Virus record (IMG/VR): IMGVR_UViG_3300048838_001106
Coordinates: 92,270 to 156,269 of that record
Direction: 5' to 3' (one strand)
DNA from: a virus
Length of the DNA stretch: 64,000 nucleotides
In this document: positions 3,435-63,683 of the stretch, one piece after another
Numbering within the stretch: position 1 is the stretch's first letter
Layout of the letters: each line of letters opens with the position of its first letter
The notes under the pieces: generated by a model
Told to the model about the DNA's origin: nothing
Databases searched by the model: none
What the model saw: only the letters and a program-made list of their open reading frames with translations
Translations under genes and position numbers: made by a program

Positions 3435-4265
3435 ATGTACAATCTTGGTTTTGCAACCGTTATGAAGACAGCAGGGCTATCTAAGACGGCTGTCACCCTG
3501 GATCAACTACGAAAGGCGACCAGTGCTCTGCAGAAAAACACGACTGTTGTCCGCAGAAGTCTCATGCCCGATGATATTTCTGGGGGATACTCGGGCGTAA
3601 TTAGGCCCAGGAACCACCTCCCAGAAACCTTTGGATTGGGACCAAATACGCTGGGAAAAACCAAAGACAAAGACCTAGAAAGTAAGTTACGACAGATATA
3701 TGGGGATATGTTGGACTGGTATCCCGAGGAAGATGTGGATCAGGCGCTCCAGGACGCTCTTGCAAGAACCAAGGCCGTGCACCAGCCATTTATGGCAGGC
3801 GGTAGGTCTACTATTTATCAGGGAGGAAGCCCTGCTATATGGATGAAGCACCTTGTCGACAGTGGCGATTTTCCATCCCCTCAAGCGCAAGGATTCCAGA
3901 ACATGCTTAAATCCGGACCAGGACAGGAGGCATTTAATCGGTCTACCCTGCTACATGAAGGGTCCGAAATCGGTAAGCAATTTGGTAAAAGGCTGTTTGA
4001 ATCTCATTTGTCTACAAGGCCCATGCTCCAGGATATGAATATCGCAGCTACACTGCGCGGCCCAGGTAGCGAAGCTGCAGGAGCCATCAAAGACCTGCGT
4101 GCACCAGAAGTGGCGTCGTTGAACAAGTACGTTCCGGGCCTGGAGCGTCTAAATCTCGGAGAAAATCGAATTTCTCGCCACGCCCAGAAGCGCATCCAGC
4201 AATCTTACGAGCGCAGCCTCGACAGAGAAGGCGTGAAGGGTATTCCCGGTATTAACGCGCCTTGA
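3435..4265 (+). CDS. KxA-leader putative virion cargo protein with HE motif
   Basis: ATG at 3435 (GAGGA RBS); leader YNLGFATVMKTAGLSKTA; LLHEGSE...ESHLS. Confidence 0.65.
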   Translation: MYNLGFATVMKTAGLSKTAVTLDQLRKATSALQKNTTVVRRSLMPDDISGGYSGVIRPRNHLPETFGLGPNTLGKTKDKDLESKLRQIYGDMLDWYPEEDVDQALQDALARTKAVHQPFMAGGRSTIYQGGSPAIWMKHLVDSGDFPSPQAQGFQNMLKSGPGQEAFNRSTLLHEGSEIGKQFGKRLFESHLSTRPMLQDMNIAATLRGPGSEAAGAIKDLRAPEVASLNKYVPGLERLNLGENRISRHAQKRIQQSYERSLDREGVKGIPGINAP

Positions 4266-4272
4266 CCTGCTT

Positions 4273-4926
4273 TCACATCACCTTCAAGTACTTCGGCGCG
4301 ATAATCCCAGTAGGCGTGTGAATCGACGCATGCGGTACATTTGCCGCGTAGTACCCTTCGTTGTCAGGGTCCTCATAATGCTTCCACAATTCCTCTGGTG
4401 TCCGAGCTTGCAGCTCTCGAAGCTCAGCGTCCTCTAAGAACCGACGCCGCGTGTCTCCGCGACCATCCGGGGTCAGCTCAATCCCGAAGGCACGCGTCTC
4501 GGGCTCATCACGCATAAGTGCATCCATGTCGACCTGGATTTTTGCGTAATCGTTCTGGCGAAGCGGATGCGCGTCTGCCAGTTGAACCGTGTCCGGAATA
4601 TCAGAGAACATGACATTCGGGCCTTCAAAGACGTCCTTCTCGTAGCCGGCTTGCGTACCCTGAATCGCGGACAGCAAGCGCCCTGTGCGCGTGCCTTTTG
4701 CCAGGGCCACGGCCTTCAGCAGCTCAGGGTTGGCAACCAGCCCTTTGTTCCCCGCAAGGCCGTGCGTCATAATCGAGTCTACCGAGGCAGGCGGCGCGTA
4801 GTGATAGACAGGAGCAAGGGGTTGAGGTGTTGGAGGTGTGACAACAGCAGGCGCAGGCGCAGGAACAACAGCGTCGAGCTCAGCAGTTTTGAGGACCAGG
4901 TTGTAGCCTACAGCATAGCTATTCAT
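4273..4926 (-). CDS. KxA-leader cargo, Tpt1/KptA-like ADP-ribosyltransferase fold
   Basis: Leader YAVGYNLVLKTA; VYHYAP..VDSIMTHGL, NVMFS, C-terminal IIAPKYL. Confidence 0.55.
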   Translation of the reverse strand: MNSYAVGYNLVLKTAELDAVVPAPAPAVVTPPTPQPLAPVYHYAPPASVDSIMTHGLAGNKGLVANPELLKAVALAKGTRTGRLLSAIQGTQAGYEKDVFEGPNVMFSDIPDTVQLADAHPLRQNDYAKIQVDMDALMRDEPETRAFGIELTPDGRGDTRRRFLEDAELRELQARTPEELWKHYEDPDNEGYYAANVPHASIHTPTGIIAPKYLKVM

Positions 4927-5831
4927 CGTTCAAAGTACCCCAGACCAAGTCTGTCGCGGAGAGCCTGGCCTTCTTCTGCAGTGATATAGAAGCGTCCACC
5001 GGGCTGTACTGCGTCTTTGAACTGCGTGCGAATCAAGCGGCGCGCTTCGTTCGCCTCGTCACTTATGTTCGGATCATGTTGCATATTTTTAATGTTGTCA
5101 AAATACGCGATGCCCGGCCTTTTCACCGTGCCTATATCGTCTACCATTGGAGAGGCCCAGCTGTTCCCAACCCCTTTTTGCCATGCACGGTCAATCGCCA
5201 CCTCCGCATTCCATAAGAGGTCTGGGTCGCGTGCTATGCGATCAGACGTCTCTCGCTCTATTACATGGTTAGGCGACAGTGGCGTATCGAAAGGTAAGGT
5301 GGTCTCGGCATGAAAAGGCCGCGTTCGTCCTCCGAACCCGTCATAACTACTTTGGGTGGGTGCTCCTGTCCAAAGATCCATGTTTTGAAGTTTCCACTTA
5401 TCTGTGTCGGCTTTTGAGGCGTCCACGTGGGTGGGGACGTATTCAGGATTTGCGCTGGTAAAGCGTGTTATTTGATGGCCTCGAGGACCACCAACCACAT
5501 CTTGAACTCTGAGCCCAACCGGCACTTCCTCACCCAACACACCTGGAATGACTTGCTTCGAAGGGAGTATTGGGAACGCATGACGCCAGCCTTTGCCTGC
5601 CAAAGCACCCAAGGCAGCTGTAGCCGCGCCGCCTACAACAGGCTTCGTCCAGTCGGGTTTTCGGTCGTTGACGAGCGTGTCTATTCCGAAACTTCCAGCG
5701 CCTATCGCACCGCCAGCAGCCCCAAGCCCGATCGCATTCCGCGTAGCAGGGTGTAAGTCGTGCCACTTACTGAGGTCGAGCTTCGCAATCTTCATCAAGT
5801 GGGCGTACCCAGATTCGTAGTGTCTATTCAT
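4923..5831 (-). CDS. KxA-leader cargo with Gly-rich hydrophobic segments
   Basis: Leader YESGYAHLMKIA; AIGLGAAGGAIGAG and VVGGAATAALGALAG. Confidence 0.65.
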   Translation of the reverse strand: MNRHYESGYAHLMKIAKLDLSKWHDLHPATRNAIGLGAAGGAIGAGSFGIDTLVNDRKPDWTKPVVGGAATAALGALAGKGWRHAFPILPSKQVIPGVLGEEVPVGLRVQDVVGGPRGHQITRFTSANPEYVPTHVDASKADTDKWKLQNMDLWTGAPTQSSYDGFGGRTRPFHAETTLPFDTPLSPNHVIERETSDRIARDPDLLWNAEVAIDRAWQKGVGNSWASPMVDDIGTVKRPGIAYFDNIKNMQHDPNISDEANEARRLIRTQFKDAVQPGGRFYITAEEGQALRDRLGLGYFER

Positions 5832-5835
5832 AATC

Positions 5836-7263
5836 TCAAAACTCCGGCTTCTTGCCTTTCGATTTGGAAAAGTCTTCCATCAATTCCAGGCCGCCATCTT
5901 TTGTTGGCCGCCAGCGTTTGGTCAAAGTAGGTCTTAGAGCACCTTCGGTGACTACTTTTTCGTAGTAGGGGGAGGTGTCAACGTGGGTGGGGTCTAACAT
6001 CTTCGACGAGGCAATTTCCTCAGGAGACAGGTATCGAGAGTCCCTGGCTACGTGCGCGTGCCAGGGACTTTGCTCTTTAGGGGGGACTTTCGCAGGGTCA
6101 AACTCGAACACAGACGCTCTATTATGTGTGCCTTCGGCGTATTGCCGGGCCACGTCTGGATGCCCTGTCACCCACGTAGGATCTTTAGGCTCTACAACCT
6201 GGTACGGACTCTGAGCTCTGTATGCACGAGATGCCGGGTCGAACATACTGTGTGACTTAAAAATCTCACCCGTCGAATAATTCAACGTTTGAATATCTGG
6301 ATCTATGGGAGAGACGGGTGTAGCTCTCGTGTTCATGATGTATTTTCTCAGGCGAGAGCGCGCAGAATCCGCTTCGAGTTTCGCCTCCCTTGCAGCAGCA
6401 AATATCGCGGCCATATCTTCTCGAGGCATTCTCTGAGGATTTCTTACAGCGTTGTGCACCGTGTCGAGCACAGGATTGAGCGCCGAAGAGGACGTCCGAG
6501 ACTCACTAACCCGGAGTTTGTCCGAGAGAGTTGCCAGCGCCTCAGCTGGAAACGCGGATAGTACATCTCCGGAATCTTGCAAATAAGAATCTACCAGGAA
6601 GGAGATGTCTTGTGCCTTCTCTTCTGGGGACATGACGCGCTCTAGGGTCCGCACAACATCGTGCGGCGACGCATCGTCTGGCAACGCCCTCAGATCGCGC
6701 TGAGCGTCAGGGTGCGCAAAACTAAACAACCTGGCTTGCTGAAGATTAGCAGGATCTGAGGATTGCCTAATCCACGAGGCTGGAACAGGGATGTTCTCAG
6801 CCCCAAGAATGCCAACAGCCTCTTCTGGCTTGAGAGGCCGATCGTGTAGCAGCTTATTGACACTGTATTGGATATTAGGGTTCAGGGCCTCGCCAGCAGA
6901 CGCGTGAAGATGGTCTTCCCGAAGCGGGTTCCGCGGCAAGAAAGACTTCAAATACTTCTCAGGCTCATAAGTTTTAGACAATATGATCTGTTCAATGTCT
7001 TCAGACACGGGCAATCTTCGGGCAGTGTCAGCTAAAGGCGAGAACCGCGAATCTTGCGAACTTGTCCATTCGCGAATCGCAGATGGAACGCCTTCCCAGT
7101 CGCCCGTGCGTCTCCCCCACTGCAATCTCTCTGCAGACACAGGTGCATTGGGGTGCTCGATGTCCAGGAGCTTCTTCAAGAGCCTTGTGTTGATTGCCGT
7201 CTTTTCCAGGCCGGCCACTTTGACCACCGAATTGTATCCATCGATATAACTTGACCGCATCAA
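5836..7263 (-). CDS. KxA-leader cargo with C-terminal ADP-ribosyltransferase-like domain
   Basis: Leader YIDGYNSVVKVAGLEKTA; C-terminal AYRAQ, WVTGHPDVARQYA, SVFEFD, YEKVV. Confidence 0.55.
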   Translation of the reverse strand: MMRSSYIDGYNSVVKVAGLEKTAINTRLLKKLLDIEHPNAPVSAERLQWGRRTGDWEGVPSAIREWTSSQDSRFSPLADTARRLPVSEDIEQIILSKTYEPEKYLKSFLPRNPLREDHLHASAGEALNPNIQYSVNKLLHDRPLKPEEAVGILGAENIPVPASWIRQSSDPANLQQARLFSFAHPDAQRDLRALPDDASPHDVVRTLERVMSPEEKAQDISFLVDSYLQDSGDVLSAFPAEALATLSDKLRVSESRTSSSALNPVLDTVHNAVRNPQRMPREDMAAIFAAAREAKLEADSARSRLRKYIMNTRATPVSPIDPDIQTLNYSTGEIFKSHSMFDPASRAYRAQSPYQVVEPKDPTWVTGHPDVARQYAEGTHNRASVFEFDPAKVPPKEQSPWHAHVARDSRYLSPEEIASSKMLDPTHVDTSPYYEKVVTEGALRPTLTKRWRPTKDGGLELMEDFSKSKGKKPEF

Positions 7264-8357
7264 GTCCTCCTGGAAGGCCGCTGCACGGCGGTGGCAACCG
7301 CAGGCAGTGCCTCGGTGTGCGCGGCATACGGCGCTGGCACTGTTTCAGCGCGCGGACCTTGTCTGTGCACTTTCTTTACTGGTATCTCTCCTCGATGCAT
7401 GTAAGCACGCATGTCCGATGCTGAGCTGGACAGCCTTGTGAGCGGGGTGGGGCCGCCCCACTGTGCGCGCTGCAAGTTCGGGAAGTAGCCAGATTTTGGA
7501 TTAGCCGCGCCCTCCTCTACGTGGATACCATGACCCGTTTGCGGAGAATACACGCCATCCGACGGGCGCGTCGGTATGAAGTCCACAACCTTTGATCTTC
7601 CGTCCGCTGTTACAGCAATGTTGTTGCCGTGACTAGACCGCTGCCATGTGTCAGCGAAGTCCTCGCTGCGAAATCCTGGGTGCGCCCGGTCTAGAGACCT
7701 ACGAAGCGCCGCCTCGTCATAGTGCGTGTTGCCGCCTGTCTGTGCGTGAGGCACGTACTCCGTGTAGTGAGTTCGATACTCCTTGCCGGTGACTGGACTG
7801 GTGACCGTCTTTGCGCCGTACAGCTCTGTAAGAGGATTGTCCTCCTTGGCGAAGCGGCGTTGCGATGCCTGCATGATTTGTTCTTTTCGCCTCACGCCCT
7901 TAGGAGAGTAGATGGCCGAGTCCGGGTTGTACGTCTTGCGTGCGACCAGTTGACCTTTGTGAGCCACTAGATCTGCGATGCCTTCACCGCCAGTTCCCAG
8001 GTGACCGACGTATTCCCTGGGAGAGTAGCCTCGCTGCTGCATGGTAGCTAGAAGCTGGTTCGCCTTGTCAGGAGAGGCACCTGCCTGGATGCGGTCAGGA
8101 GCAAGGCGAGTCTTTTTTAGAGGCGTTTGTGGTGCGGTGGCGCCAGGAAACGCCGCAGCAGTCTCCGCGTACGCTGAAGGCTGTGTTTCGGCTACGGTCG
8201 AAGCGTACCTAGTCGGCGCTGCTTTGTTGACATAAGATGGCTCCGTGCTCTTTAACAGAGACCGCAATATCTTTGTCTCTCGCCTGGCCGCTTCTTTTTC
8301 GAGCAGCCCTGCAGCAGCGTATACAGCGTCCATGCCGTCGAAGTAGTTTCTGGTCAT
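7260..8357 (-). CDS. KxA-leader cargo, protein kinase-like (PKL fold)
   Basis: Leader YFDGMDAVYAAAGLLEKEA; GTGGEG loop, VARK lysine, TEYVP hinge, D...HGNNI, KVVDF. Confidence 0.75.
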   Translation of the reverse strand: MTRNYFDGMDAVYAAAGLLEKEAARRETKILRSLLKSTEPSYVNKAAPTRYASTVAETQPSAYAETAAAFPGATAPQTPLKKTRLAPDRIQAGASPDKANQLLATMQQRGYSPREYVGHLGTGGEGIADLVAHKGQLVARKTYNPDSAIYSPKGVRRKEQIMQASQRRFAKEDNPLTELYGAKTVTSPVTGKEYRTHYTEYVPHAQTGGNTHYDEAALRRSLDRAHPGFRSEDFADTWQRSSHGNNIAVTADGRSKVVDFIPTRPSDGVYSPQTGHGIHVEEGAANPKSGYFPNLQRAQWGGPTPLTRLSSSASDMRAYMHRGEIPVKKVHRQGPRAETVPAPYAAHTEALPAVATAVQRPSRRT

Positions 8358-8897
8358 TTACTTGGTCCGGGAGTACAAATAGGTAGCAGCTGCACCAGGA
8401 GCACCGACGTAGAGGGCCGCGTCAGACACGGACACGCCTTTTCTGGCCGTGTCTTTTAAGTCACGGAGCATCTTAGATCCCTTCGCCCCAACACTTTTTG
8501 CTGGCAGCCTGGCGACCTTCATTATGGTGTTGTAGCCATCACTGTAGCTGCTTTCTTTGCTGAAATGGTCGTGCAGTTTGTTTACGCCGTAAACTGTGGC
8601 GCCTATACCACCCAAGATTCCTGCGCCGGCGAGTCTTCGCCCCTTCATGGTCATCTTCCTGTTAGCGATGGCCTTGTGCCCGGCGTCTTCCATCGGAATG
8701 CCCTCGTCCACCATTTTCCTGATGGCCCTGGACGAGTCCTTGTCGCGCTTGGTGTCAACTGTCATGTTGAGGTACTTTAAGCCAGCCGCATTTGCTGCCG
8801 TGCCCCCAATGGCCGCCGCCGCACCAGGAGGCAAAGCAGATTCTTCTTGGTACGTGGCATATGCTGGCGCAGGGCCGTAGCCCAATTTTGTTGTCAT
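8358..8897 (-). CDS. Gly/Ala-rich membrane-type protein with internal KxA leader
   Basis: Three hydrophobic Gly/Ala segments; internal YSDGYNTIMKVA at 8511-8546. Confidence 0.65.
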   Translation of the reverse strand: MTTKLGYGPAPAYATYQEESALPPGAAAAIGGTAANAAGLKYLNMTVDTKRDKDSSRAIRKMVDEGIPMEDAGHKAIANRKMTMKGRRLAGAGILGGIGATVYGVNKLHDHFSKESSYSDGYNTIMKVARLPAKSVGAKGSKMLRDLKDTARKGVSVSDAALYVGAPGAAATYLYSRTK

Positions 8898-8914
8898 CGT
8901 GGTTCTCGCCGTGG

Positions 8915-9406
8915 TTAGATCTCGTCAGCTGCCTGTAATCCTGCCCAGATACCGTGACGCGCCGCGCCTTCACCCGCTACACCACCTAGCAGACCTGCTA
9001 TTACGTTAGGGCTTAGCGGGATTTTGACATTTCGAATTTTAATTTCGTCTGGAAGATTCCCACGCAGAGCATGTCTGGCGATGGCCGACACCACTTGATC
9101 GGTGCCTTCTCCGGCGACTTCGCCGCCGATTGCAGCCCCAAGTTGGTACTTCAAGTCCAGATCTCTGGTGCCGTACATAGCCCCCAGTCCAGGCGCCATG
9201 CGCGCACCAACGTTAAACGGGGACAGCTTTCTGCCAGTTAGGGCGTGCGCTGCTTCTAGAGGGAACTGCGCATAGAAGCCAGCGGACCGGCCAGCCACAG
9301 CGTCTTCGGTAGCTTTGTCCAAATCAGGGCCGAAAGGCCAGGCGGCTGTTTTTGTTGGGAGGCCCGCGTGCGCCAGCACCAGATTGAACCCTGTATGATA
9401 CGTCAC
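8915..9406 (-). CDS. KxA-leader Gly-rich membrane-type protein
   Basis: Leader YHTGFNLVLAHAGLPTKTAA; GxxxG segments; GTG start with GGAG. Confidence 0.65.
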   Translation of the reverse strand: MTYHTGFNLVLAHAGLPTKTAAWPFGPDLDKATEDAVAGRSAGFYAQFPLEAAHALTGRKLSPFNVGARMAPGLGAMYGTRDLDLKYQLGAAIGGEVAGEGTDQVVSAIARHALRGNLPDEIKIRNVKIPLSPNVIAGLLGGVAGEGAARHGIWAGLQAADEI

Positions 9407-36605: not shown

Positions 36606-37025
36606 TTATCCTCTGAAGTGTCGAGGCGCAGCAGCGGAGGCGTCAGCATCGTGTCCTCGCATTCTGCGCAGAATTTCGGCACGGTCTTGCATGCGTTGCA
36701 GCTCCATTGCATGCTCAAATTTCTTTTTATGAGCAAGATCGACGCCAGCGTGCGCGCCGCCAAGACCGCCAAGCAAGCTGCCGATGGCCGCACCTGCGAG
36801 ACGTCCTTCGTTGTTTTCAAGCCGCTGTGTGCCTGGGATAGGGATATTGAAGAAGTTCCGGTGTGTCTGCGAGGCTACAAGGTCTCCGATACCCGCACCT
36901 ATCGCGCCACCCAACACGGCACCCGTAGCACCTCCTCCCGCACCGTATCCCTTACTCATTTCAGGGATGATTCCAGCAAAGTCATCTTGTGCTAGTTTTT
37001 CCAAGAATGGCCTTCGTTTATACAT
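36606..37025 (-). CDS. glycine-zipper protein with RRPFLEKLA leader
   Basis: MYKRRPFLEKLA; GAVLGGAIGAGIG; GAAIGSLLGGLGG. Confidence 0.7.
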   Translation of the reverse strand: MYKRRPFLEKLAQDDFAGIIPEMSKGYGAGGGATGAVLGGAIGAGIGDLVASQTHRNFFNIPIPGTQRLENNEGRLAGAAIGSLLGGLGGAHAGVDLAHKKKFEHAMELQRMQDRAEILRRMRGHDADASAAAPRHFRG

Positions 37026-41416: not shown

Positions 41417-42322
41417 TCAGAGGCGTACGCGCGTAATCGACTTAGTGTTACCGATGCCGATTCCAGGCGCAGCGTATGAGAAGAACTCGATCATGTCGGC
41501 TTCCTGCTTGATGAACAGCGTCGCGTCCTGAAGCAAGAAGAAGTTGCCGAGGTACTCTTGAGGACCAAAGACAAAGAACTCATTGGCGGGAAGGATGTCG
41601 TTCTTGATGGTCGTAATGACGGGGTAGCCCCAGAGAACGTTTTCGTTCTCGACGCCTTCGTCATAGTGACGCGCCGCCACCGGATCGCCGACAGAAGTTG
41701 CGGGCAGCTTCAAGCAATCGTAGTAGAGCTCCTTGGTCATCAAGATCTTTCCAACGGGAATGCGTCGTGATGTAAGGTTCTTGAAAGCGTCAGCAACGTT
41801 GTCTGCGGTAAGACCACCAACCGGCGTCAACTCTTGAGCAGGGTTCATCGAAATGATGGTGTCAAGAGTCTCGTAGAAACGCTCGTCTTCCTGGTCCGCC
41901 ATGTCCTTCACAGAGTTGTCCGAGAGGATCTTGCGGATGTCGTTCTGATACGTCATCAGCTCGAACTTCGATTTGCGGAATCGCTGCGATTCGGTCTTGC
42001 CGAAGTACACTGCGTAGCGAGGTCCTTTGAACCACGTACGGGGGCCTGTGCCTTTGAATGGAACAAACGTGGCGCGTGAATCGGGCTCGATCTCTACGAT
42101 CTTCTTGGGAAGATCGGTGTGCTCGTCACGGTCGAGCTCGTCATCCGACAGGAGCTGTGGCGGGAGGATCTCTCGCGCAAACGACGCCTGGCGCAGTTTC
42201 GATCGAATGAATGCGGAGCCCTCCGCCTGGGCTTCCTTCGTCTGGCCGTTTTCAATCTTTCGAATGAAGTTGCTGTTAACAAGCTGCGCACTTACGCGCG
42301 AGGTTTCTGTATTATATGACAT
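41417..42322 (-). CDS. major capsid protein (HK97-like fold)
   Basis: 301 aa; FIR.KLR..SFAR.ILPP, D....ED..F, C-terminal GIGIGN..SI; strong terminator after it; lies between the protease/scaffold and neck genes; TKEA near the N-terminus. Confidence 0.75.
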   Translation of the reverse strand: MSYNTETSRVSAQLVNSNFIRKIENGQTKEAQAEGSAFIRSKLRQASFAREILPPQLLSDDELDRDEHTDLPKKIVEIEPDSRATFVPFKGTGPRTWFKGPRYAVYFGKTESQRFRKSKFELMTYQNDIRKILSDNSVKDMADQEDERFYETLDTIISMNPAQELTPVGGLTADNVADAFKNLTSRRIPVGKILMTKELYYDCLKLPATSVGDPVAARHYDEGVENENVLWGYPVITTIKNDILPANEFFVFGPQEYLGNFFLLQDATLFIKQEADMIEFFSYAAPGIGIGNTKSITRVRL

Positions 42323-44515: not shown

Positions 44516-45187
44516 TTATTGAGTGAGTTGTGCGTGCAAAGACTGCATGTGCTCGAAGCCTCGTTCGAAACAGTCATTACTCAGTGCTGCGACCTTTTCG
44601 AGACCGTCGTAGACGCCCTCCATGAAGTCTGCTTGCTGTGCGGCCGCTGTTTTCTCTGCGCCAGTCAATACGCCAAGCGCCCAGTCCGCATCATTGTATC
44701 CTGACACAGCAGCTTCTTTGATCATGACACCTTCAGCGTAGGCCGCCGTTTTCTCTGCGCCAGTCAGCGCGTCTAGCGCCCAGTCCGCATCATAGTATCC
44801 TGACACGGCAGCTTCTTTGATCATGGCATCCTCAGCGTAAGCGTTGTACGCGGCTGTTTTGTGTGAGCCTGGCGTTGGCGCGTTCGCTGCAAACTGGTTA
44901 GCGCGGCTAATAAAGCCGTCAAACACAGCGGCGCCGTAAAGCTGCGCTTCTTTGTGCATGCGATGTTCATCAGCAGCGGCCAGATCAGATGCCATTTTTT
45001 CTAGAGAGGCGACGGCCGACTCACTGGCTACTTTTTCTCGAGGCTGATTCAGCTGATTCAGGCTTGCACTCAGCGCGTTGCGCGCCGCATTGACGTCGAC
45101 TTGCTGGGCCGGCTGCGCCGCAGCTGCCGTTTTTTCCACAGGTGGACGATTGAGGTCCGACAAAATTTGCATGATAGATTGAGACAT
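44516..45187 (-). CDS. KxA-dense inner-head / scaffold protein
   Basis: About ten K-x-A sites (EKTA, EKVA, EKMA, HKEA, HKTA, IKEA...); internal duplication. Confidence 0.7.
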   Translation of the reverse strand: MSQSIMQILSDLNRPPVEKTAAAAQPAQQVDVNAARNALSASLNQLNQPREKVASESAVASLEKMASDLAAADEHRMHKEAQLYGAAVFDGFISRANQFAANAPTPGSHKTAAYNAYAEDAMIKEAAVSGYYDADWALDALTGAEKTAAYAEGVMIKEAAVSGYNDADWALGVLTGAEKTAAAQQADFMEGVYDGLEKVAALSNDCFERGFEHMQSLHAQLTQ

Positions 45188-45247: not shown

Positions 45248-47227
45248 TCAACGCATTAAGGCTTCTCCGATCGCCTGTATAGCATCTTCAAGGTCTACTT
45301 CATCGACAGTGGCATTCGCGAATTTAGATATGATTGGAGTCAAGTCTGGAATGTGATTTCTGACACTGGCTGCAACCGATGACGGGTGCAGTGCCATTAG
45401 TCCAGCCAGCGCGGTTGTGTTCGCGAGCCAACCCGCACTTGGGTTGTCCTGATACATTCTTGTGATTTCTGACGGCGCACCCACCATATCTTGTGTGAGC
45501 AGCGCCGTGGTTAGCGCGCCCCCGGCTATTGGAATTCCTACGTTACGCAGACCTGATGCACGTTTTTCCACGAATTCAGTGTTTACAGGGACCTTGACAC
45601 CCTCAAGCGTCTCTACGGTGGGTGTCCGCTGCTTTGTCAGCGTATCTGTGACACCCCACGCGCCACCCAACAACGCCGGTGCGGCCAGCACAGGGTGCCG
45701 GCCCGACAAGGCTTTGTATCCAATACCCGTCACCGCTGCCAATCCAGCAGCCTCTGCCATCTCTTTTTTTCGGTTGGACCAGTCAGCCTTTTCCCCTGCG
45801 CGGCGAGTCGTCTGATAAGTTTTGCCTGTCTTGTCGTCTTGCCAGTGCAGAGGCTGATTTGTCTCGGAGTAGTATGCGTTGGTAGCAGACATATTTTCGT
45901 CACCAGGCAATAGCGTTGCAATGCCTGATTGTTCGGCTAGCCCACCAACACTCTCTGGAACGTATCGCCGGGCAAGATAGTCCTTGTAAAGGGCCCTCTT
46001 TTCTTGCATAGGCGATGTCAGGTCTATCAGGTCCCGTCGGATGTATTCATGGCTCAACTTCACTAAGCCGGCGCGCTCTATCGCCGTCAAAATTTGTGGT
46101 GCCACGCGCAGGGCAGCGGCAACTTTCCCCTGCGAGTACGATAGGCGTTGCTCTATGTCTGGGTCACTAGGTAAGCCTTTCAACATACATATGAGCCGGA
46201 ACAGTTCTACAACGGTGGGCAACATCCCGATAGCGAACATGGAGCTTGCCAATTGAGGTGCGCTGCAGCCGCCAACAGAGGATAGTGCTCTGACGCTGAG
46301 AGTTGGAATCCCCGACTTCCATGGACTTAGAATCTTTGTTGTGTGGTTGACAGCGTTAACTTCAGCCGCGTCCAGCGACGGAGTAGACCTCGGATCAACA
46401 ACGTCACCGGCTACCACCTTTTCTATATCAGACACTTTCTGAAGCGCGCTTCGCTTTTCAGAGATGTCTTGCTCTTCCGCGCCTAAGTCTGCAGATGTTC
46501 GCACATCATATATGTAGGCGACTTTTTTCATCATGAAACCGATGCGATCGGCAGGCTTAAACACGAAGCTGATGTCGAACAAATCTGGTGCGGGGTTCCA
46601 CACAAAGTGACGCTCGCCATCGGGCATCAAACGGTTCATGCCATATTTAGGATTGGTACCGTTCACATGCTCGCAGTACTGCGCACGTGTGGGAGCCCGA
46701 TTGCCGCAGTGATTGCACACATCGTATTTGATGCGGCATCCCATGGACACTGCGGGGTAGTCACCTGCGTCTATTCGATCCACAATGTCTTGCCCCGCGC
46801 TATGTGATACGCGCAAGAACAATTCGACACGGTGCATTTTGTGATTATAGAACGACTTCCTGACGCCGCCCATGGACTTAGCAGGATCTTTGTTGATGTG
46901 GTGGCGATATACGTGCGCGCGCCGCTCAAATGAGCTGTGGTGCTCTGGAAGGGTTTCGCCTGGCGCCACTGCCCACTGCCCATTTACCTTTACCGGTTTC
47001 TCGGCAAACGCATCTCCGTTCCTGTTAGGACCGTAGTACTCGGAGGCACTCATTGCGAGTACCAGGACGTTGGTAAATCCTGGCTCGGTCGTAATGGTGG
47101 AAGCGTAGTCCATCACATCACTGGACGCATACTTATACAGGTGCCTGTCGCGAAGATCCAGGATCTGACATCTCGGCTCTCCTGTTTCCTCGAAATATTC
47201 GTCGAATGTGATGGTCTTTGGAAGCAT
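45248..47227 (-). CDS. prohead maturation protease with C-terminal extension
   Basis: N.NGD.F, YRHH.NKD, catalytic-type VSMGC followed by C..C...YC.H Zn insert, FDISFV..PAD; later KKVA, EKRA sites and hydrophobic helices. Confidence 0.78.
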   Translation of the reverse strand: MLPKTITFDEYFEETGEPRCQILDLRDRHLYKYASSDVMDYASTITTEPGFTNVLVLAMSASEYYGPNRNGDAFAEKPVKVNGQWAVAPGETLPEHHSSFERRAHVYRHHINKDPAKSMGGVRKSFYNHKMHRVELFLRVSHSAGQDIVDRIDAGDYPAVSMGCRIKYDVCNHCGNRAPTRAQYCEHVNGTNPKYGMNRLMPDGERHFVWNPAPDLFDISFVFKPADRIGFMMKKVAYIYDVRTSADLGAEEQDISEKRSALQKVSDIEKVVAGDVVDPRSTPSLDAAEVNAVNHTTKILSPWKSGIPTLSVRALSSVGGCSAPQLASSMFAIGMLPTVVELFRLICMLKGLPSDPDIEQRLSYSQGKVAAALRVAPQILTAIERAGLVKLSHEYIRRDLIDLTSPMQEKRALYKDYLARRYVPESVGGLAEQSGIATLLPGDENMSATNAYYSETNQPLHWQDDKTGKTYQTTRRAGEKADWSNRKKEMAEAAGLAAVTGIGYKALSGRHPVLAAPALLGGAWGVTDTLTKQRTPTVETLEGVKVPVNTEFVEKRASGLRNVGIPIAGGALTTALLTQDMVGAPSEITRMYQDNPSAGWLANTTALAGLMALHPSSVAASVRNHIPDLTPIISKFANATVDEVDLEDAIQAIGEALMR

Positions 47228-53563: not shown

Positions 53564-54625
53564 TTATCGCCTGTGAAGGTTGGACAGGTTGCCGAGCACG
53601 GAACTTACCGACTGTTGTGGAGGCGCATAAGCGTGAGCCACTTTCTGCAGGAAGTTTCCAAGCTCGTGAGGCTCGAGCGACATGCAATGCTTGACGGCAG
53701 CTACCTTCTGATCCATCGGCATGGTTTCAGGGAGATAGGGCCCGACATCCTCCGCGGTCTGATTAAACCGGTCATTCCATCGAGCGGAGGCGCTCTTCGT
53801 TGCTTCAACTATAGAGTTAGAGCTGGCACCGCCAACACCTGTCGGGGCAAGTGGGTGTGGCTGCTCTGTGCCAATTCGGGACGCCTGCGGCTCTTTGATA
53901 TTGGCATTCCCCTGTCCGACCACTGCGTAGCCTTCTGGGCGATGCGCATCAAGTACAGCGGCAGCATCCTGGCTTCCTGCTACTGTGTTAGGAGGCGTCT
54001 CGCCAGCGCCTGTGATGACAGGGTTCTCAGCAAGTTTGTTCAACAACCTGTTGAAAGCAGCGGACTTGGAAGCCTCGACCACCGAGTTAGTTGCCGCACC
54101 ACCTACGCCTGTTGGAGCAAGTGGGTGTGGCTGTTCGGTTCCAATGCGCGCAGCTTGTGGCTCTTTGAAGTTAGCATTTCCCTGTCCGACCACTGCGTAG
54201 CCTTCTGGGCGATGCGCATCAAGTACAGCGGCAGCATCCGGGCTGGCACTCAACGTATTTGGTGTTACAGACCCGCCGGTGCCCTGCACGAGGCCTCCGC
54301 CAGCAGATTCCATGGCAAGTTTGTAGGTGAGGTGCACCAAGTCACCGTACGCATCTGAGATAGAACCCGAGATGGAAGCACCACGAGCGTTTGACGCAAA
54401 CTTGCCAGTAGCGCGCAATCGCTGGTCATAGTCTTGAATGGCGGCTGCGATCTTGATGCACTCGTCATGCGGCACAGCCTGTGATGCCGGCTCGGATTGC
54501 AGAGTCCCCGCAGCATAGGCACACGCTTCTTTAAGCAAGCCTGCTGTTGGGATGTTGGTAATGCCGGCTTGTTGCAGGTATTCACCCACACCGCGTGCGT
54601 ATGCTTGTCGGGTAACGTTTGACAT
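53564..54625 (-). CDS. KxA protein with leader-like N-terminus and internal duplication
   Basis: YARGVGEYLQQAG; LKEA, IKIA, YKLA, NKLA, QKVA; duplicated DAAAVLDAHRPEGYAVVGQGNAN..EPQA.RIGTEQPHPLAPTGVGG; promoter TTGACC-N16-TAAACT (54674-54701). Confidence 0.7.
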   Translation of the reverse strand: MSNVTRQAYARGVGEYLQQAGITNIPTAGLLKEACAYAAGTLQSEPASQAVPHDECIKIAAAIQDYDQRLRATGKFASNARGASISGSISDAYGDLVHLTYKLAMESAGGGLVQGTGGSVTPNTLSASPDAAAVLDAHRPEGYAVVGQGNANFKEPQAARIGTEQPHPLAPTGVGGAATNSVVEASKSAAFNRLLNKLAENPVITGAGETPPNTVAGSQDAAAVLDAHRPEGYAVVGQGNANIKEPQASRIGTEQPHPLAPTGVGGASSNSIVEATKSASARWNDRFNQTAEDVGPYLPETMPMDQKVAAVKHCMSLEPHELGNFLQKVAHAYAPPQQSVSSVLGNLSNLHRR

Positions 54626-54713: not shown

Positions 54714-57641
54714 CTAGCCGTAGTGCTGCGTTGGCGGGCGGCCGTAGCCTGACTGTTGTTGCTGTTGCTGCTGATAGTATCTGTGCTTTGCCGCTTCGGC
54801 TGCGCGCGCCGCATTGCTATAATATTGCATGTACTTGTAATTGTCCAAGCTGGAGTTAGCCGCGTTGTGTAAGCGCGCACCAACTGGAGCTGGACTGGCC
54901 GGCACGTAGTCTGGGTCTAGCTTTTCTCCGATCGCCCTGCCAGCACCTATGACAGGAGTGGCAATAGCCCAGCCGCCAAGGAAGCCCGCGGGACTCCCGA
55001 GGCCCCAGCCAGCTGTCTCACCAATGGCAGATCCGACGTTTCCAAGACGGGACTCGCCCTCGCCAGCAGGTGTTGTCGCAGCGGTGTACACCGATGCCGC
55101 AGGCAATCCGATGGTGAAAGACTTCTGCAGAGCCTCACTGCCGACCGCAGCGCCTAGTCCCATGTACCTCTCACCTGTGGTGTTAGCATGCACCCTGTAT
55201 TTCTTGCCGTTACGCTCTACGACTTTCGTTTTGTTGAACTCACGCCACGCGCGGGCTGTATCTGGATCTACCGCAAAGTCTCCAGTCAAAAGACCTCCCT
55301 TGCCTATAACGCCACCATGCTGATAACGCTGCTTCAGGACCTGCAGAGGCGACTGTCCGATGGACATATCCTGGAATACACCTTTTCCAATTCGATACCC
55401 TGTAGTGTTCTTGTCGTTCCACGCCTTGAACTTCTCTGGTGTGATGTGCTGAGACAGCCCTGGTATGTGCGCATCCAAAGCTGCAGCATCGTACTTGTGG
55501 TCCGGCGTAGGGACACCCTGCAAGGAGTTGCTCATCCTGTCCCACAAACCGGGCTTCCGCATGCCTTGAATGCTTTTCAGTGCGTTGGCGCCCTCATCTG
55601 TGACAACGCCTCCCCGCGTCACACCAGCCGATTCCCAGTCCACGCCTCCCATACCCTTGCCCATACGGCGAGCAAGGTGTGCTGATTGGTCGATGCCGCC
55701 CTGGGTCCAGCCCTTAGTTGAGATGTGTTTTAGAGGAGCGCTGTCTAACGCGCCGGGTGCGCCAAACAGAAATTTCTTAGCCATAGGTATTAACTTGCCA
55801 GCGGACGCCAGCTTTTCCAGCGCTGACTCGTACTCATCTTGCGCACTGGCATACTTGCCGTCTTGTCCTGTACCGAATGGCGTACCCATAGCAAACGCCG
55901 GCACAGGACTGGTAGACGCCACATTTGTCGTGTGTCCAAAGCCGGCTCCATCTACAAGTGTCTTTCGAAGATACCGATGCGACAATCGAGACATCCAATC
56001 GTCACTCAATAGCGGCGTTTGGATGATGGACTTCATAATGGGTTCGAACTCTGGCGACTTTGTGGACACCTCAATATCTTTGATTCCTGCTTTTTCCAGG
56101 TCTTCTATAACTCTGGATGTGACGCGCGTGCCCACGGAGTAATGCATCGCCGGCGCACCGAGAATCATGTTCTTAGCTTTGGACACCGGCACGCGCTCTG
56201 TATGCTTGCCAAACGCTTTCTGCATGTCTTTGAAAGCCACCACGTCGCCGCGGATGAACGTGTTTGTTGGGTCCTTGTCCACACGTACATAGTTCATCGA
56301 GCTGCGCGCCAGCAGTTCTGCGTGACGTCTGTCCAGATCCACGCCCTGGCGACCGTACAGATCTGATATTGAGTCGGCCATGTACTGTCGTCCGGCGCCG
56401 ACACCCTTCAATCTGACCACATCATTGGGCATTGGGGTGCCATCAGACAGTGCATCCCCCGCCTCAACTCGGTCGTTGACCTTCACGATTGGTTGCAGGC
56501 CTGGCGGAACGTAGTAGTTCTTTGCGTCTACTTTGATGTTCCACCCGCCTTGCGGTGCTTTTGTCACGCTAGATACCGTGCCATCCATTTCCGAAATGGA
56601 GGCCTTGTCCATAAATGACTTTGGAACCTCGGTCAGCGTTCTAAAACCATCTAGGCCGCTCAGAGCACGGCTCTTGCCACCGGCCATGCGTACGCCGTGC
56701 TTTGCGTTTAGAGCGAACTGCGTGAGCGGCTCGGTCAACGCCTGCGCAGACCTGACGCCTACGTTTGACCCTATGGGATATGGATTGCCCCACTCGTTTA
56801 GTCCCATGCATTTCTGACATATGCCGTCGTCTGCTTCGCATGTTGCTGGGCTTCGGACCATAATGCGGTACAGTTTCGATTTTTTAAGATCCGACAACAC
56901 GTGTGGCGTTATCAGGTCGCCAGCCATGTGAGATGCTTCAGCTCTAGCTAGATACCGGTCCACAGCCTGGGCACCAATGGGCAGCATGATTCCGCCTCTG
57001 GTTTTGCAGTCTGGGATGGTGATGACCAAATTTTCCATGTTTGACACGACGACTTTGGCCACAGCACCGGGCTCAACAACGCTGCCCGTCGAAGCGATAG
57101 CGTTGCGACGAGACTCGGCACCAGTTACCCACGCGTCGGCTGCGCTTAGCCCCTGGGAGTAAGACTTGGTAATCAACCACGGCACCTCCTGGCCGTCGGT
57201 TGACGACGCTACAACCGGAGACGCCACTGTTTTCATCAGCTGCGCCATTGAACCGCGCCCACCAGAGCGTGCCATCAGGGTCATGTCAGACTTATGGTGC
57301 GGCACGGTTGCCAAAACCTTGTCCTGGGTCTCCAGCAGAATCTTTCTCTTGTCGGCATCCGTCGTTGCTTTTTTCATCTGCGACAGCGCGCTTTTCAGGA
57401 TTGGATCACGCCTGGCGTAATCCGGCGCGATGTCGTCCAGTCCTACACTGATGCCCTCCAGAGTTGAAATATCATCTCCGACTTTTTTAACATCCTGTAT
57501 CGCACGCGCATATCCTTGTGGGTCTTTCTTAGCGTACGCAGACAGTGCCTCGGATAGCGCCTTCTTGGTGACAGGACCTGTTAAGCGCATGTCCCCCGGA
57601 AGAGCGTCGTTGAGCAGCATTTGGCCGAATGTTTCTGTCAT
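54714..57641 (-). CDS. rpoC: RNA polymerase beta'-C subunit with ~380-aa C-terminal extension
   Basis: GISVGLDD, SG.RGS..QL, bridge-helix region, VRSP.TC....ICQKC.G, VG..SAQ...EP.TQ trigger loop, D.RH.EL..R; the homology ends at KYA (~55850). Confidence 0.9.
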   Translation of the reverse strand: MTETFGQMLLNDALPGDMRLTGPVTKKALSEALSAYAKKDPQGYARAIQDVKKVGDDISTLEGISVGLDDIAPDYARRDPILKSALSQMKKATTDADKRKILLETQDKVLATVPHHKSDMTLMARSGGRGSMAQLMKTVASPVVASSTDGQEVPWLITKSYSQGLSAADAWVTGAESRRNAIASTGSVVEPGAVAKVVVSNMENLVITIPDCKTRGGIMLPIGAQAVDRYLARAEASHMAGDLITPHVLSDLKKSKLYRIMVRSPATCEADDGICQKCMGLNEWGNPYPIGSNVGVRSAQALTEPLTQFALNAKHGVRMAGGKSRALSGLDGFRTLTEVPKSFMDKASISEMDGTVSSVTKAPQGGWNIKVDAKNYYVPPGLQPIVKVNDRVEAGDALSDGTPMPNDVVRLKGVGAGRQYMADSISDLYGRQGVDLDRRHAELLARSSMNYVRVDKDPTNTFIRGDVVAFKDMQKAFGKHTERVPVSKAKNMILGAPAMHYSVGTRVTSRVIEDLEKAGIKDIEVSTKSPEFEPIMKSIIQTPLLSDDWMSRLSHRYLRKTLVDGAGFGHTTNVASTSPVPAFAMGTPFGTGQDGKYASAQDEYESALEKLASAGKLIPMAKKFLFGAPGALDSAPLKHISTKGWTQGGIDQSAHLARRMGKGMGGVDWESAGVTRGGVVTDEGANALKSIQGMRKPGLWDRMSNSLQGVPTPDHKYDAAALDAHIPGLSQHITPEKFKAWNDKNTTGYRIGKGVFQDMSIGQSPLQVLKQRYQHGGVIGKGGLLTGDFAVDPDTARAWREFNKTKVVERNGKKYRVHANTTGERYMGLGAAVGSEALQKSFTIGLPAASVYTAATTPAGEGESRLGNVGSAIGETAGWGLGSPAGFLGGWAIATPVIGAGRAIGEKLDPDYVPASPAPVGARLHNAANSSLDNYKYMQYYSNAARAAEAAKHRYYQQQQQQQSGYGRPPTQHYG

Positions 57642-57645
57642 TTAG

Positions 57646-58137
57646 TTACCCTACGCCAATGCCGCGCTGGAATCGTGTCTTGTTTAGATTGCCTATCTGG
57701 TGTGCTGTAGTTCCAGCACCGGCCACGTCAGCCGTGTGACCTAGCGCGCGTCCCACAGGTTTAACGCCAGGCGCGTCCAGCACCTTCTTTGCACTACCGG
57801 TAGCGTTACCCACACGCTGCATTGCTTTAGGCGCTACTTTAGACAGCAACCTGCCTCCGGCAGCCAGTGCACCACGCGCGGCCGCGGCAGCAGCTACACC
57901 AACCGCTGCCTCTTTCTCGGCCTGGTTGTACGCTATCAGCAGGTTTCGCATAGCAGCTGCCTTTACGGAGGGTTCCCCCATGTTGATGCCCATGCGTCCT
58001 GCCGCGTCCCCACCCTCCAACGAGGTTGGAGGCCCCCACAACACGGGGTCTACCTTGCTCATCTCTCCAACCATCTTGATGGTGTCTTCCTGCTGCTTGA
58101 TAGCACTGATCAAGTCATCAACACTTTGAATAGCCAT
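57646..58137 (-). CDS. KxA protein between the RNAP genes
   Basis: VKAAA and EKEAA, followed by a basic amphipathic segment. Confidence 0.6.
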   Translation of the reverse strand: MAIQSVDDLISAIKQQEDTIKMVGEMSKVDPVLWGPPTSLEGGDAAGRMGINMGEPSVKAAAMRNLLIAYNQAEKEAAVGVAAAAAARGALAAGGRLLSKVAPKAMQRVGNATGSAKKVLDAPGVKPVGRALGHTADVAGAGTTAHQIGNLNKTRFQRGIGVG

Positions 58138-58141
58138 GCGA

Positions 58142-61100
58142 TTACCCTATTTCTACCGGAGTTGTTAGTTGTAGTTCCCCGCGTTTGTACGCGGCCATTG
58201 CTTCATCTTTCGTCTTAAATTTACGCACAGGACCTGTTGCTTGTCCAGAGGTGGCCATATATGCACCGATGAGGGCCTCGTGGGCAGGGAACACCATCAA
58301 CTTGTCTTTGGACGTGTCTCCAAAGATTAGATTAGACAACGTCATACCCTGAGCTTCTTTGACCGCGGCGTCGCCCACCGGCACATGTATTTGCATGGCA
58401 TCACCGTCATAGTCTGCGTTCATACCAGCTTCAGCGAATGGGTTTAGCCGGATTGTCTTGCCAGGCACCAGAGATGGATACGCTGCTACCATGTTGAATC
58501 GGTGCAGCGTCGGAGCCCGGTTGAGAATTGCAGGGCGTTGCTGGATCTCTATGTCTAGCACACGCTTGGCAGCCATAGTTCTGTTCTTGACTTGCTGTCG
58601 CGCCTCTACTGCGCTGTAGCCATTTCGGACCATGCCTTTGACAATGAATGGCTCATACATCTTCCAGGCCATGTCTTCTGGCATGCCTACCTGGTCGAGA
58701 GCAAGTGTGTGGTCGGGAGCGATTGTTCCTCGCCCAGACAGGTCTTGACGACGTCGCATTAGCTTGGATTGAAAGTAGCCTCCTTTCGGACTTCCGGTAC
58801 CCGTAATCTGGGTCAGGTGTCCTTTCACCCCGCGACCTTGATTTTGCGGACTAACGGCGTCTCGAGTACCAAACAGCGCACCTACTGCGTCATGCATGTG
58901 TTGTCTTTGCTTAGCCATTTCTTCTGGGAATCTAAGCTCCTCCGGAATAGCTCGCATAGATTCATCGGCCAGCATCAAGTCACGGTACAGGTAGTTGGCG
59001 TCGGCCACTAGCGTAGTCCCGTCGGCATTGGGAACGATAGGACGCACTACAGGAGGCGTCACGGGTATCTTGCTGAGAACGTAAGCATCTCCAGCTCTAA
59101 GTCCTTGTTTTCGCAGAGCCTTGGCGTACTTCAGTTGCTTCACAGCTGTGTTGAGTGGCGTGCCTGATAGCTTGTTTATTTGCTGTGATAACTCTCGCTC
59201 GTACGCAACAAGGTCTATGGCGTTCAGCCGATCGCGTATCTCAGCCGCGCCTTTCTCATTTCGCAGCTTAGTGAATTCCTTGCCTGACATACCTAGCAAG
59301 TACCTGGCCGGGTCTTCAAACATGGGGTTTACGATAGGCTCAAACAGCTCGATCTTGGAGTATTTCGTGCCCTCCAGCCCGCCTGTGCTTACCGGATCAA
59401 ATAGGCCATCTTTTTCTGGAGCTATTTGAGGGATGCCTTTGACTGTCTGAGGCTTAACAAGCAATGCGTTCTTGATAGACTTCGACGCCAGCGCGTCAAT
59501 ATCTTTGTCCGTCAGGGGAGCTAACGTCATCATCGTGCCCTCCTTCTTGACGTTGACACCTGCACCCCGAAGGGTGTGCGTGAACTTGTCGAATGCGAAA
59601 TTATCAGTGGGTGTCTGCACCGGAAGACCTAGCTGAACTCTGCGCCAGTATTCGTCGTTTCGTTGGCCTTTCACTGCCGCAGTTTCTTGCAATATGTTGC
59701 GCGCGTTATGTGCAATTAGTGCATTGAACTCCATCTTGGCTATGGACTTAGCACCTTCCTCTCCTCCTTTACTTGGCTGCAGATTCGCGTCGTAGCCCGG
59801 TCCAACGCCGCGTGCAGCATAGTTTGTGTCGGTAGACTTAAACATCTTCAGAGTGAATTGGCGTCCGACGTGGATGTTTGGAATGTGCTTCCCACTGATG
59901 GGGTCGTACACAGTCTCTTTGTCCTTGATGCCGTGCTGCTTCAACAAGCCCTTGACCCACTCGACGTTATCCTGATCCTTGAATTGATCAATTTGAATAG
60001 GCTTTCCGGTCTTCTCAACGACCTTGCCGAGCGAGGTCTCCAGGATTTGGGAAGGATTGATGCGCGAGATGATGCCGGCTGACGTCATCAACACGTCGAT
60101 AGGCCTGCCCTTCTCGTCCTTGACCATCTGGTCGTCAGGGATGATCTTTGATACAACGCCTTTGTTGCCGGCTCGTCCTGCTATCTTGTCTCCAACTTGG
60201 ATAGGCTCTTCGGTGCGGATAGTCACCATCACCATCGATGGCGTCACGGCTACGTCCTGCACGGTTCCTGGATAGTCGTGGTCCCAGGTAACACCTGAGT
60301 CGCGGAAAGGTTTGATGAGGGACTTGTGCAGATTGCCTAACATTTGGGCCTTTGCTGTGGGCGCGGTTTTTTGCAGCCCGGCAATCAGCAAGTCCCCGTG
60401 GTTTACCGTGGCCCCTTTTCTAATGACTCCTCTTTCATCCAGCGCCTCGTACTGTGCTCTGGAATACCGCACGCCAAAATGAATTTGATGCTTCTTCTTG
60501 TCGACGCTGGTGGAGGCGTCAAGCCCTATAGACTCCTTGTACATGTGCAAAGATGTGAGTTTCTTCGCCGCGGATTCTGAGATGACAACAGCGTCGTTGG
60601 AGTTGTAGCCGTAGTAGGGCATATAGGCGACGAGCAAGTTCTTACCCAGAGCAAGAGAGCCATCGACGGTGAAGTTGTTGTCTCCTAAGACCTGGCCTTT
60701 TGTGACTTTGTCTCCGGCTTTCACTTTGATGTCATCGTGCATGTACGTCTTAGACATCAGCGGGAAGTAGTTGGATTTTGGAACTCTGACCAGGCCGTCT
60801 TTGTCTTCTTTTGATGCGTACTTGTGCATCTTCGCAGGGTTCGACGGGTCACTTGGGCGGTAGCCCATATCTTTATACATCTGCACAAGCGTATTCACAT
60901 CTGTGCTTCCATCTTTGTAGGGCCGCGCCGTCAGTGTAATACTCCTTCCTTTGTAGTCTTTCTCGATGCGCTGCATCAAATCTCTGGCAATACCCTGCCT
61001 GCGGTACTCCGGCTTCACCCACACGCCAGAAATAAAAACAGAGCCGTCGTCTTTGGGCTCAACAGATGCGTACGCCACGTTGATACCGCCAGAGTGTACG

Positions 61101-62911: not shown

Positions 62912-62993
62912 GCTCTCACCGCCTGTTCTAATCGTTGGGAGTATACGCCTGGTTGGAGGAAATCGCCACCCCATCTGAGAGTCAAAAAATGGA

Positions 62994-63458: not shown

Positions 63459-63593
63459 GCTTCAGGTCACGAACAATCAAATGACTGGACTACGTCGCAA
63501 GACGTAGTCCAAGGTCTAAAAGAAACGCGGGGGCGTTTCTTTAGCTCGCTCCTCCCATCCTTTTTTAGCCTCCGAAACACACCACTCAATAGT

Positions 63594-63683
63594 GGTATAA
63601 GAGTATGTAATACAACAGCAAAGCCAGTCACCTGGTGTGGCTTTGTTTGTTTCACTTGGCCACCAGGGCACGGAGTTCTTATG
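63594..63683 (+). promoter_or_regulatory. early promoter, hairpin and GGAGTTCTTATG start motif
   Basis: GGTATAAGAGTATGTAAT; GCAAAGCCA...TGGCTTTGT stem; GGAGTTCTTATG 63672-63683. Confidence 0.7.

Follow-up and report, generated by a model that had tools for sequence, protein, structure and literature searches.

A portable N-terminal tag ending in K-x-A on unrelated proteins of an uncultured phage: a candidate capsid-targeting propeptide

The final 64 kb of IMG/VR virus record IMGVR_UViG_3300048838_001106, a contig of 156,269 bp from an uncultured phage (G000) estimated to be 95% complete, carry an array of seven adjacent genes whose products have in common a short tag ending in the residues K-x-A. 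This stretch of 64,000 nucleotides (positions 92,270 to 156,269 of the record) is referred to below as the window, and its coordinates are kept separate from those marked as genome coordinates. Myovirus-type genes are also present in the window, including sheath-like, capsid and protease-like genes and a split multisubunit RNA polymerase (RNAP). The nearest cultured phages, very distant at about 30% RNAP identity, are Vibrio phages D181, D148 and D69 and Salmonella phage Arash, and G000 lies outside the phiKZ group, to which it is only remotely related. Its capsid protein is common to more than 120 uncultured contigs at 60-75% identity. The closest relative, G001, has a capsid protein 75% identical to that of G000; L121, a tag-bearing contig of 80.9 kb, and G013, a tag-less relative, were also compared. 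BLASTN and TBLASTN searches against 50,697 phage records returned no match to the cluster.

The original prediction, made from the letters of this DNA, had named seven instances of an identically spaced 12-residue motif, and all seven were confirmed in place (Table 1), six of them beginning no more than five residues from a start codon and the seventh internal. In the protein of gene 1, K-x-A occurs at residues 11 and 17 and nowhere else. The seven nevertheless proved to be an incomplete set. In a six-frame translation of the whole genome, the strict 12-residue pattern had nine matches, every one in a real open reading frame (ORF) and none in a wrong frame. A 14-residue pattern, in which the motif is extended by [AS]-[GEKR]-[LI], had 13 matches, again all in real ORFs and 12 of them N-terminal; among frames of at least 100 aa, 12 were observed against 0.055 after shuffling. 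A hidden Markov model (HMM) of the leaders, proposed as a check when the motif was first described, scored members among the G000 ORFs at 35-50 bits and the best non-member at 7.7 bits, with no matches in the plus-strand, presumably early genes. The core of the tag reads Y-x-x-G-[YF]-x-x-h-h-K-x-A-G-L and spans 12-16 residues, taking the form MTP[YF]ExGYxxFMKxAGL in relatives. The further suggestion that the leader opens a head-operon protein of 353 aa held in weakened form: the 14-residue pattern fits but the strict pattern and the HMM do not, and its opening, which includes the look-alike YARGVGEYLQQA at 54601 and is kept at the N-terminus of the G001 ortholog, is a weak relative of the tag.

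Table 1. Tag-bearing genes, motif instances and structural or polymerase genes (window coordinates unless marked as genome).
Feature	Position	Strand	Description
Tagged cargo gene 1	3435..4265	+	276 aa from ATG at 3435; leader MYNLGFATVMKTAGLSKTA
Motif instance YNLGFATVMKTA	3438-3473	+	residues 2-13 of gene 1 protein
Tagged cargo gene 2	4273..4926	-	217 aa; leader MNSYAVGYNLVLKTAEL
Motif instance YAVGYNLVLKTA	4882-4917	-	gene 2
Tagged cargo gene 3	4923..5831	-	302 aa; leader MNRHYESGYAHLMKIAKL, then Gly-zipper-like hydrophobic segments
Motif instance YESGYAHLMKIA	5784-5819	-	gene 3
Tagged cargo gene 4	5836..7260	-	474 aa from second ATG (475 aa from 7263); leader MRSSYIDGYNSVVKVAGLEKTAI
Motif instance YIDGYNSVVKVA	7213-7248	-	gene 4
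Tagged cargo gene 5	7260..8357	-	365 aa; leader MTRNYFDGMDAVYAAAGLLEKEA
Motif instance YFDGMDAVYAAA	8310-8345	-	gene 5
Cargo gene 6	8358..8897	-	179 aa; leader internal; Gly-zipper-like segments flank both sides
Motif instance YSDGYNTIMKVA	8511-8546	-	internal, residues 118-129 of the 179-aa gene 6 protein
Tagged cargo gene 7	8915..9406	-	163 aa, GTG start; leader MTYHTGFNLVLAHAGLPTKTAA
Motif instance YHTGFNLVLAHA	9365-9400	-	gene 7
Sheath-like gene	32941-35556
Major capsid protein	41417..42322	-	301 aa
Scaffold-like head protein	44516..45187	-	223 aa; adjoins protease-like gene
Putative prohead maturation protease	45248..47227	-	659 aa; directly upstream of scaffold-like gene
Head-module protein	53564..54625	-	353 aa from ATG at 54625; opens MSNVTRQAYARGVGEYLQQAGI, weak leader look-alike
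Split multisubunit RNAP genes	54714..62974	-	975 aa + 1610 aa; inside head module
Sigma-ART fusion	genome 44959-46857 = L001:6960-8858	-	632 aa; within second array; opens GMEKTAI

In the DNA encoding the tag, conservation is confined to the constrained codon positions and extends neither to synonymous positions nor to the DNA upstream; selection therefore acts on the peptide. A nucleotide-level element and a recent duplication were both considered and ruled out, as only the constrained codon positions have been kept.

The K-x-A with which the tag ends is also the leading short motif of the head module. When all 400 gapped residue pairs of the form X.Y were scanned without prior choice, K.A came first in 13 head-module proteins of G000 (63 observed against 23.3 expected, z = 9.7; the runner-up pair reached z = 4.3), and it ranked first again in G001 (z = 7.2) and in tag-less G013 (z = 5.3) when their head modules were scanned. 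No enrichment was seen in the rest of the G000 genome (154 against 147 expected), and counts in tail and baseplate proteins were 0 against 2.0 expected in the hub, 1 against 1.9 in the sheath and 5 against 7.0 in a 1234-aa tail-module protein that is possibly the tape measure. The sites in head proteins read (E)-K-x-A-[A/S/G], and K-x-A fell at residues 8-32 in 8 of 17 head-module proteins compared with 9 of 62 plus-strand genes from the presumed early region (genome 57-95.6 kb; P = 0.007). Ten sites were found in the scaffold-like protein, nine of them K-x-A-[ASG] against 0.77 expected, and nine in the 353-aa head-module protein against 1.8 expected, whilst the sole K-x-A of the capsid protein (K29-E-A31) is kept in 40 homologs. 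The scaffold-like protein also contains the repeats AYAEGVMIKEAA and FMEGVYDGLEKVAAL, which look leader-like by eye; the HMM did not match them and they were not counted as evidence. The neighbouring 659-aa protein matched PHROG 18299 'head maturation protease' over residues 67-196 (E = 2e-6); it had no Pfam match, and a phmmer search of PDB sequences with the protease domain returned noise only.

Within the arrays, K-x-A is placed at the front and is scarce thereafter. All 13 N-terminally tagged or array proteins have it within their first 30 residues, compared with 28 of 171 other proteins, and the bodies of the array proteins contain 3 K-x-A where their own composition predicts 19.9 (P = 3.4e-6). 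The bodies of 14 tagged proteins from relatives gave a similar result (4 against 12.5 expected, P = 0.0055). A K-x-A at the front combined with avoidance elsewhere would look like the pattern left by a cleaved propeptide on cargo exposed to a protease, and a front-only K-x-A is not expected from a mere binding or membrane motif. Exposure to a head protease is the best explanation for the depletion in the cargo bodies.

Other proteins of the contig have their own K-x-A features. Two tail-module proteins (window 32083-32928 and 36606-37025, both on the minus strand) share the opening M(YK)RRPFLEK[IL]A followed by Gly-rich segments; here K-x-A falls at residues 8-12, possibly as part of another type of propeptide. 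A 338-aa protein encoded far from the head module (genome 22366-23382, minus strand) has 10 regularly spaced K-x-A-[SG] sites (K-x-A-[ASG] count 7 against 0.39 expected), a feature kept in G001, and two genes away lies a P-loop protein with a GIGKTA motif (genome 20345-21682). An ORF at the contig end (window 63467-63976, minus strand) opens with tandem GVTASTVSTGGSG repeats. Residues ~633-716 of the 1610-aa RNAP beta/beta'-N protein (window 58142-62974, minus strand) match phage acetyltransferase families (PHROG 3810, E = 8e-6; PHROG 1249, E = 8e-5).

Six of the 13 matches to the 14-residue pattern lie outside the window, and five of these form a second array (genome 42.4-48.9 kb) directly downstream of a hub-position gene and reaching M23-peptidase and gp25-position genes. 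The upstream gene is assigned as the baseplate hub by its position and had no family match; for hub relatives, a single-protein capsid-side search was empty and a three-sequence alignment succeeded. The second array includes two more proteins without the Y..G core, opening ..GMEKTAI.. (632 aa) and ..LVEKVAM.. (336 aa). The C-terminal half of the 632-aa protein is of sigma-70 type (Pfam Sigma70_r3, E = 9.5e-5; PHROG sigma factor, E = 6e-7) and its N-terminal half is ADP-ribosyltransferase (ART)-like and homologous to the 475-aa window protein; at the same locus, relatives have a 230-250-aa sigma-like protein only. Across the hub-side locus (genome 41937-48926; L001:3938-10927), four proteins, three of them tagged, have a C-terminal module of ~50 aa in common, consisting of a Gly-zipper and then ..ND..LGTD.., and the passengers are thus mosaics of several modules.

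The description of the seven window proteins as having unrelated bodies was borne out in that BLASTP found no similarity among them, and requires the amendment that the 475-aa protein has paralogs outside the window. None of the window passengers matched Pfam or PHROG. Cargo sizes range from 77 to 475 aa, and most bodies, which span 84 to 475 aa, lack detectable mutual similarity, with an ART-like domain shared by three array proteins and the C-terminal Gly-rich/LGTD module by four. Gly-zipper-like segments are plain in several cargo bodies, and these proteins are probably membrane-active.

Two ART-like folds had been proposed among the passengers, and for one of them structure prediction agrees. 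The AlphaFold2 (AF2) model of the C-terminal domain of the 475-aa protein (~residues 340-475; predicted local distance difference test (pLDDT) 64.8, predicted template modelling score (pTM) 0.61) retrieved cholera, LT and pertussis-type ART chains as its top Foldseek matches (best E = 8e-3, cholera toxin A1). With VIA, the top 50 chains were overwhelmingly of the ART superfamily, with best Z scores of 7.6 (root-mean-square deviation 3.0, 79 aligned) and 6.8. The model gives moderate support to an ADP-ribosyltransferase-superfamily fold, and only moderate because Z stays below 8. This domain recurs in the N-terminal half of the sigma fusion, in the 336-aa protein and in one metagenome protein. 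Across these four ART-like paralogs the Tyr of AYRG, H-P..A..YA and a Glu (YEK) are invariant and the Arg-Gly of AYRG is present in three; of the ART catalytic signatures (R-S-E or H-Y-E), no S-T-S or E-x-E was identified in the domain. A word-indexed search of 5.8 billion proteins with the 475-aa protein gave itself only, and phmmer against PDB gave noise. The gene 2 body contains a YHY..SI..HGL segment that is ART/Tpt1-like by eye only.

The 365-aa protein has motifs that appear kinase-like by eye (HLGTGGEG, VARK, EYVP, VVDF), and its Gly-loop, VxxK, D..N and VDF-like motifs are kept in P0019, its sole homolog in a word-indexed search of 5.8 billion proteins. It had no Pfam match, phmmer against PDB sequences gave noise only and the AF2 model of the domain was unusable (pLDDT 32.8). 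We refer to it as a putative kinase-like protein. The only homolog of the kinase-like body lies on an otherwise unrelated phage-like contig (L124:2526-3446; Logan contig SRR26386595_3604) and opens MSTRAYRAGVEAAIEKFAA, a sequence similar to the AY.xGV...K.A variant of the scaffold repeats and of the head protein at 54601.

To follow the tag beyond G000, a profile of 18 leaders was run exhaustively on 1.84 billion representative proteins (E ≤ 1e-3) and returned 13 proteins. Three of these were giant repeat proteins, rejected as spurious sums of many 0-5-bit matches. In the remaining ten the tag is N-terminal except for the known internal copy, and they originate from G000, G001 and three further metagenome contigs. 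A word-indexed search of 5.8 billion proteins with a 45-aa leader profile recovered known members only. At a syntenic locus between the hub-position gene and sigma, the tag heads eight different small proteins in G001 and five in L121, and the tag-bearing array proteins of G000 had no BLASTP homolog in G001. The same tag thus stands on different bodies in relatives and is a portable element of a narrow clade with fast-changing passengers. Of 20 related IMG/VR genomes searched with the leader profile, 18 gave no match and the other two only 12-14-bit matches, and the Arash genome gave none; in the hub-side loci examined in tag-less relatives, sigma usually comes directly after the hub gene. One 403-aa protein of G001 (L101:12288-13499) has an internal copy of the tag, MSPFERGYYSFMKLA, at about residue 207, starting with Met, and its N-terminal HVTLVYLG is 2H-phosphoesterase-like by eye.

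The tag exists, is under protein-level selection, and is found on different bodies across related phages, always bringing K-x-A with it. We put the probability at roughly 0.55 that it is a capsid-targeting propeptide in the style of phage T4, one that differs in sequence and is cut at K-x-A. From the sequences we infer three things: cleavage by the protease at K-x-A, binding of the tag to a component of the head, and packaging and injection of the tagged proteins. During prohead assembly, the tag would attach otherwise unrelated proteins inside the head, to the scaffold core or the shell. The prohead protease would then act on the terminal K-x-A of the tag, cutting there or immediately behind it, or else on a second E-K-x-A that follows within a few residues, and the cut would free the mature cargo for delivery with the DNA. 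Among this cargo would be enzymes of the ART fold, a fusion of a sigma factor to an ART-like domain, the kinase-like protein and several Gly-zipper proteins. Mass spectrometry of purified Arash virions, in a study that listed 116 'virion' proteins, found RNAP beta to be the most abundant, accompanied by beta' and a sigma factor (PMC10585845). The Arash homologs of the split RNAP of G000 are among these virion proteins, making head delivery of enzymes plausible for the family.

The modular address label ending at K-x-A that was originally proposed fits everything computed here (a portable tag, a head-specific K-x-A and depleted bodies), though the address could also be the tail or baseplate. 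The claim that the leader family is undescribed holds for its sequence but not for its principle, which is that of the known T4 capsid-targeting sequence (CTS). The literature that could be searched describes neither the sequence of the tag nor the K-x-A code, and it is likewise silent on tagged genes placed in the baseplate module, on internal copies of the tag and on sigma-ART cargo. A broader proposal, which we rate a little short of even, is that a novel head-maturation code (K-x-A cleavage, with Ala at P1) has been coupled in a small clade to a new portable tag of 12-16 residues that loads into the capsid a fast-changing, co-injected kit with, among its members, the sigma-ART fusion, a further ART-fold enzyme, the kinase-like protein and Gly-zipper membrane proteins.

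Several observations weigh against a capsid-targeting role. Most of the tagged genes in G001 and L121, together with one of the two G000 arrays, are located outside the head module, between hub-position and sigma/M23-peptidase genes. The tag is missing from eighteen relatives that have the same capsid protein, and one of these, G013, keeps the K.A head code; the tag is therefore not the entry route of conserved cargo. Assignment of the protease depends on a single PHROG match. K-x-A is not depleted in the RNAP subunits, whose packaging is expected, and the K-x-A of the tag is mostly followed by Gly whereas the sites in head proteins are mostly followed by Ala or Ser. When the leader (18 rows) and the capsid protein (40-row alignment) were predicted as a complex, the score was 0.00, which counts neither for nor against such a role.

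The main rival, which we consider unlikely, is that the tag directs cargo to the tail or baseplate instead of the head, either to the tube lumen or to the hub/spike complex, as N-terminal payload signals do in extracellular contractile injection systems (eCIS). Gene order speaks for it, with the second G000 array and those of G001 and L121 directly downstream of the hub-position gene and upstream of sigma, M23-peptidase and gp25-position genes, and many cargo proteins are small and Gly-zipper-rich, as expected of membrane-inserting tip or channel proteins. However, the K-x-A that ends the tag is enriched in proteins of the head module and not in those of the tail or baseplate, the depletion in the bodies points to the head protease, and the window array is not near tail genes. 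Slightly less likely again is that the tag is a functional helix unrelated to virion loading, serving in membrane targeting, oligomerisation or host-target docking of proteins made after infection. In favour of this are a short tag that probably forms a helix or is amphipathic and the hydrophobic Gly-rich segments of many bodies, and the window array sits among non-structural genes of mixed orientation, yet such a helix would leave unexplained both the head-specific K-x-A ending with its body depletion and the placement of the relatives' arrays inside a structural operon. A recognition sequence for a modifying enzyme, akin to the leader of a ribosomally synthesized and post-translationally modified peptide (RiPP), is very improbable, as no candidate maturase accompanies the arrays in G000, G001 or L121, where the neighbours are the hub-position gene, sigma and M23 peptidase, and cargo of 77-475 aa with enzyme-like bodies is unlike RiPP precursors. 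Equally far-fetched are simple paralogy, with N-termini alike by descent, and chance: the shared ART-like and Gly-rich/LGTD modules lend paralogy some colour, but most bodies are without detectable similarity, synonymous sites are scrambled and the tag is kept between phages while bodies are replaced, and chance predicts 0.055 matches against the 13 observed.

Should the tag prove to be a capsid-targeting propeptide, the tag together with K-x-A would constitute a sequence rule predicting which proteins this lineage packages and injects. Dark-matter proteins without Pfam or PHROG matches would thereby become accessible to functional work, as anti-defence factors or as effectors that act early. 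The known specificities of prohead proteases would be extended to Ala at P1 after Lys-x, unlike the Glu-specific enzymes of T4 and phiKZ, and a second capsid-targeting tag, unrelated to the first, would become available for attempts to load foreign proteins into capsids. With the sigma-ART fusion as a member of the array, delivery of a transcription factor alongside the virion RNAP is suggested.

Of the known systems with which the tag can be compared, eCIS payloads such as those of the Photorhabdus PVC also rely on an N-terminal region to specify loading, through signals that are longer and poorly conserved and have no protease motif. Their cargo genes resemble the second G000 array and those of G001 and L121, but not the window array, in standing beside contractile-tail genes, and they differ in that the G000 tag carries the code of the head module. 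Herpesvirus assemblin, with the consensus (V/L/I)-x-A|S, cuts between Ala and Ser beside the C-terminal capsid-binding tail of the scaffold. In both cases P1 would be Ala with a small P1', and cleavage beside the targeting peptide would detach the protein from the shell; in assemblin substrates, by contrast, the targeting peptide is C-terminal and the consensus has no Lys. Also comparable are the giant phages phiKZ, 201phi2-1 and SPN3US, with an S/A/G-x-E code and propeptides on inner-body and ejection proteins and virion RNAP, which are likewise myoviruses with a multisubunit RNAP among their head genes and one short motif repeated through many head proteins. The N-terminal propeptides of giant phages are thought to be targeting signals (PMC5694885), but in these three phages they are mostly longer than 100 aa, have no single short tag in common and are cut after Glu.

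The nearest parallel is the CTS of T4, carried by IPI-III and Alt and processed by gp21, which is 10-20 residues long and removed by the prohead protease (PMC5694885). The G000 tag differs from it in sequence, being unlike MKTYQEFIAE and having no Glu fixed at its end, and in its presumed cut motif, which is K-x-A with Ala at P1 where T4 has L/I-x-E with Glu. Tagged genes of the G000 clade are also mostly in the baseplate module, and internal copies occur (at residue 118 of 179 aa in G000 and about residue 207 in G001). In both systems, a short N-terminal leader is placed on otherwise unrelated proteins, the cargo includes ADP-ribosyltransferase-like proteins and the cargo set differs between relatives. 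The order of genes is also alike, running protease (putative in G000), scaffold-like protein, capsid. Finally, in both the leader ends at a motif that recurs many times in a scaffold or scaffold-like protein, K-x-A in G000 and, in the T4 gp22 encoded beside gp21, the repeated L/I-x-E sites at which the T4 protease shreds its scaffold (PMC5694885).

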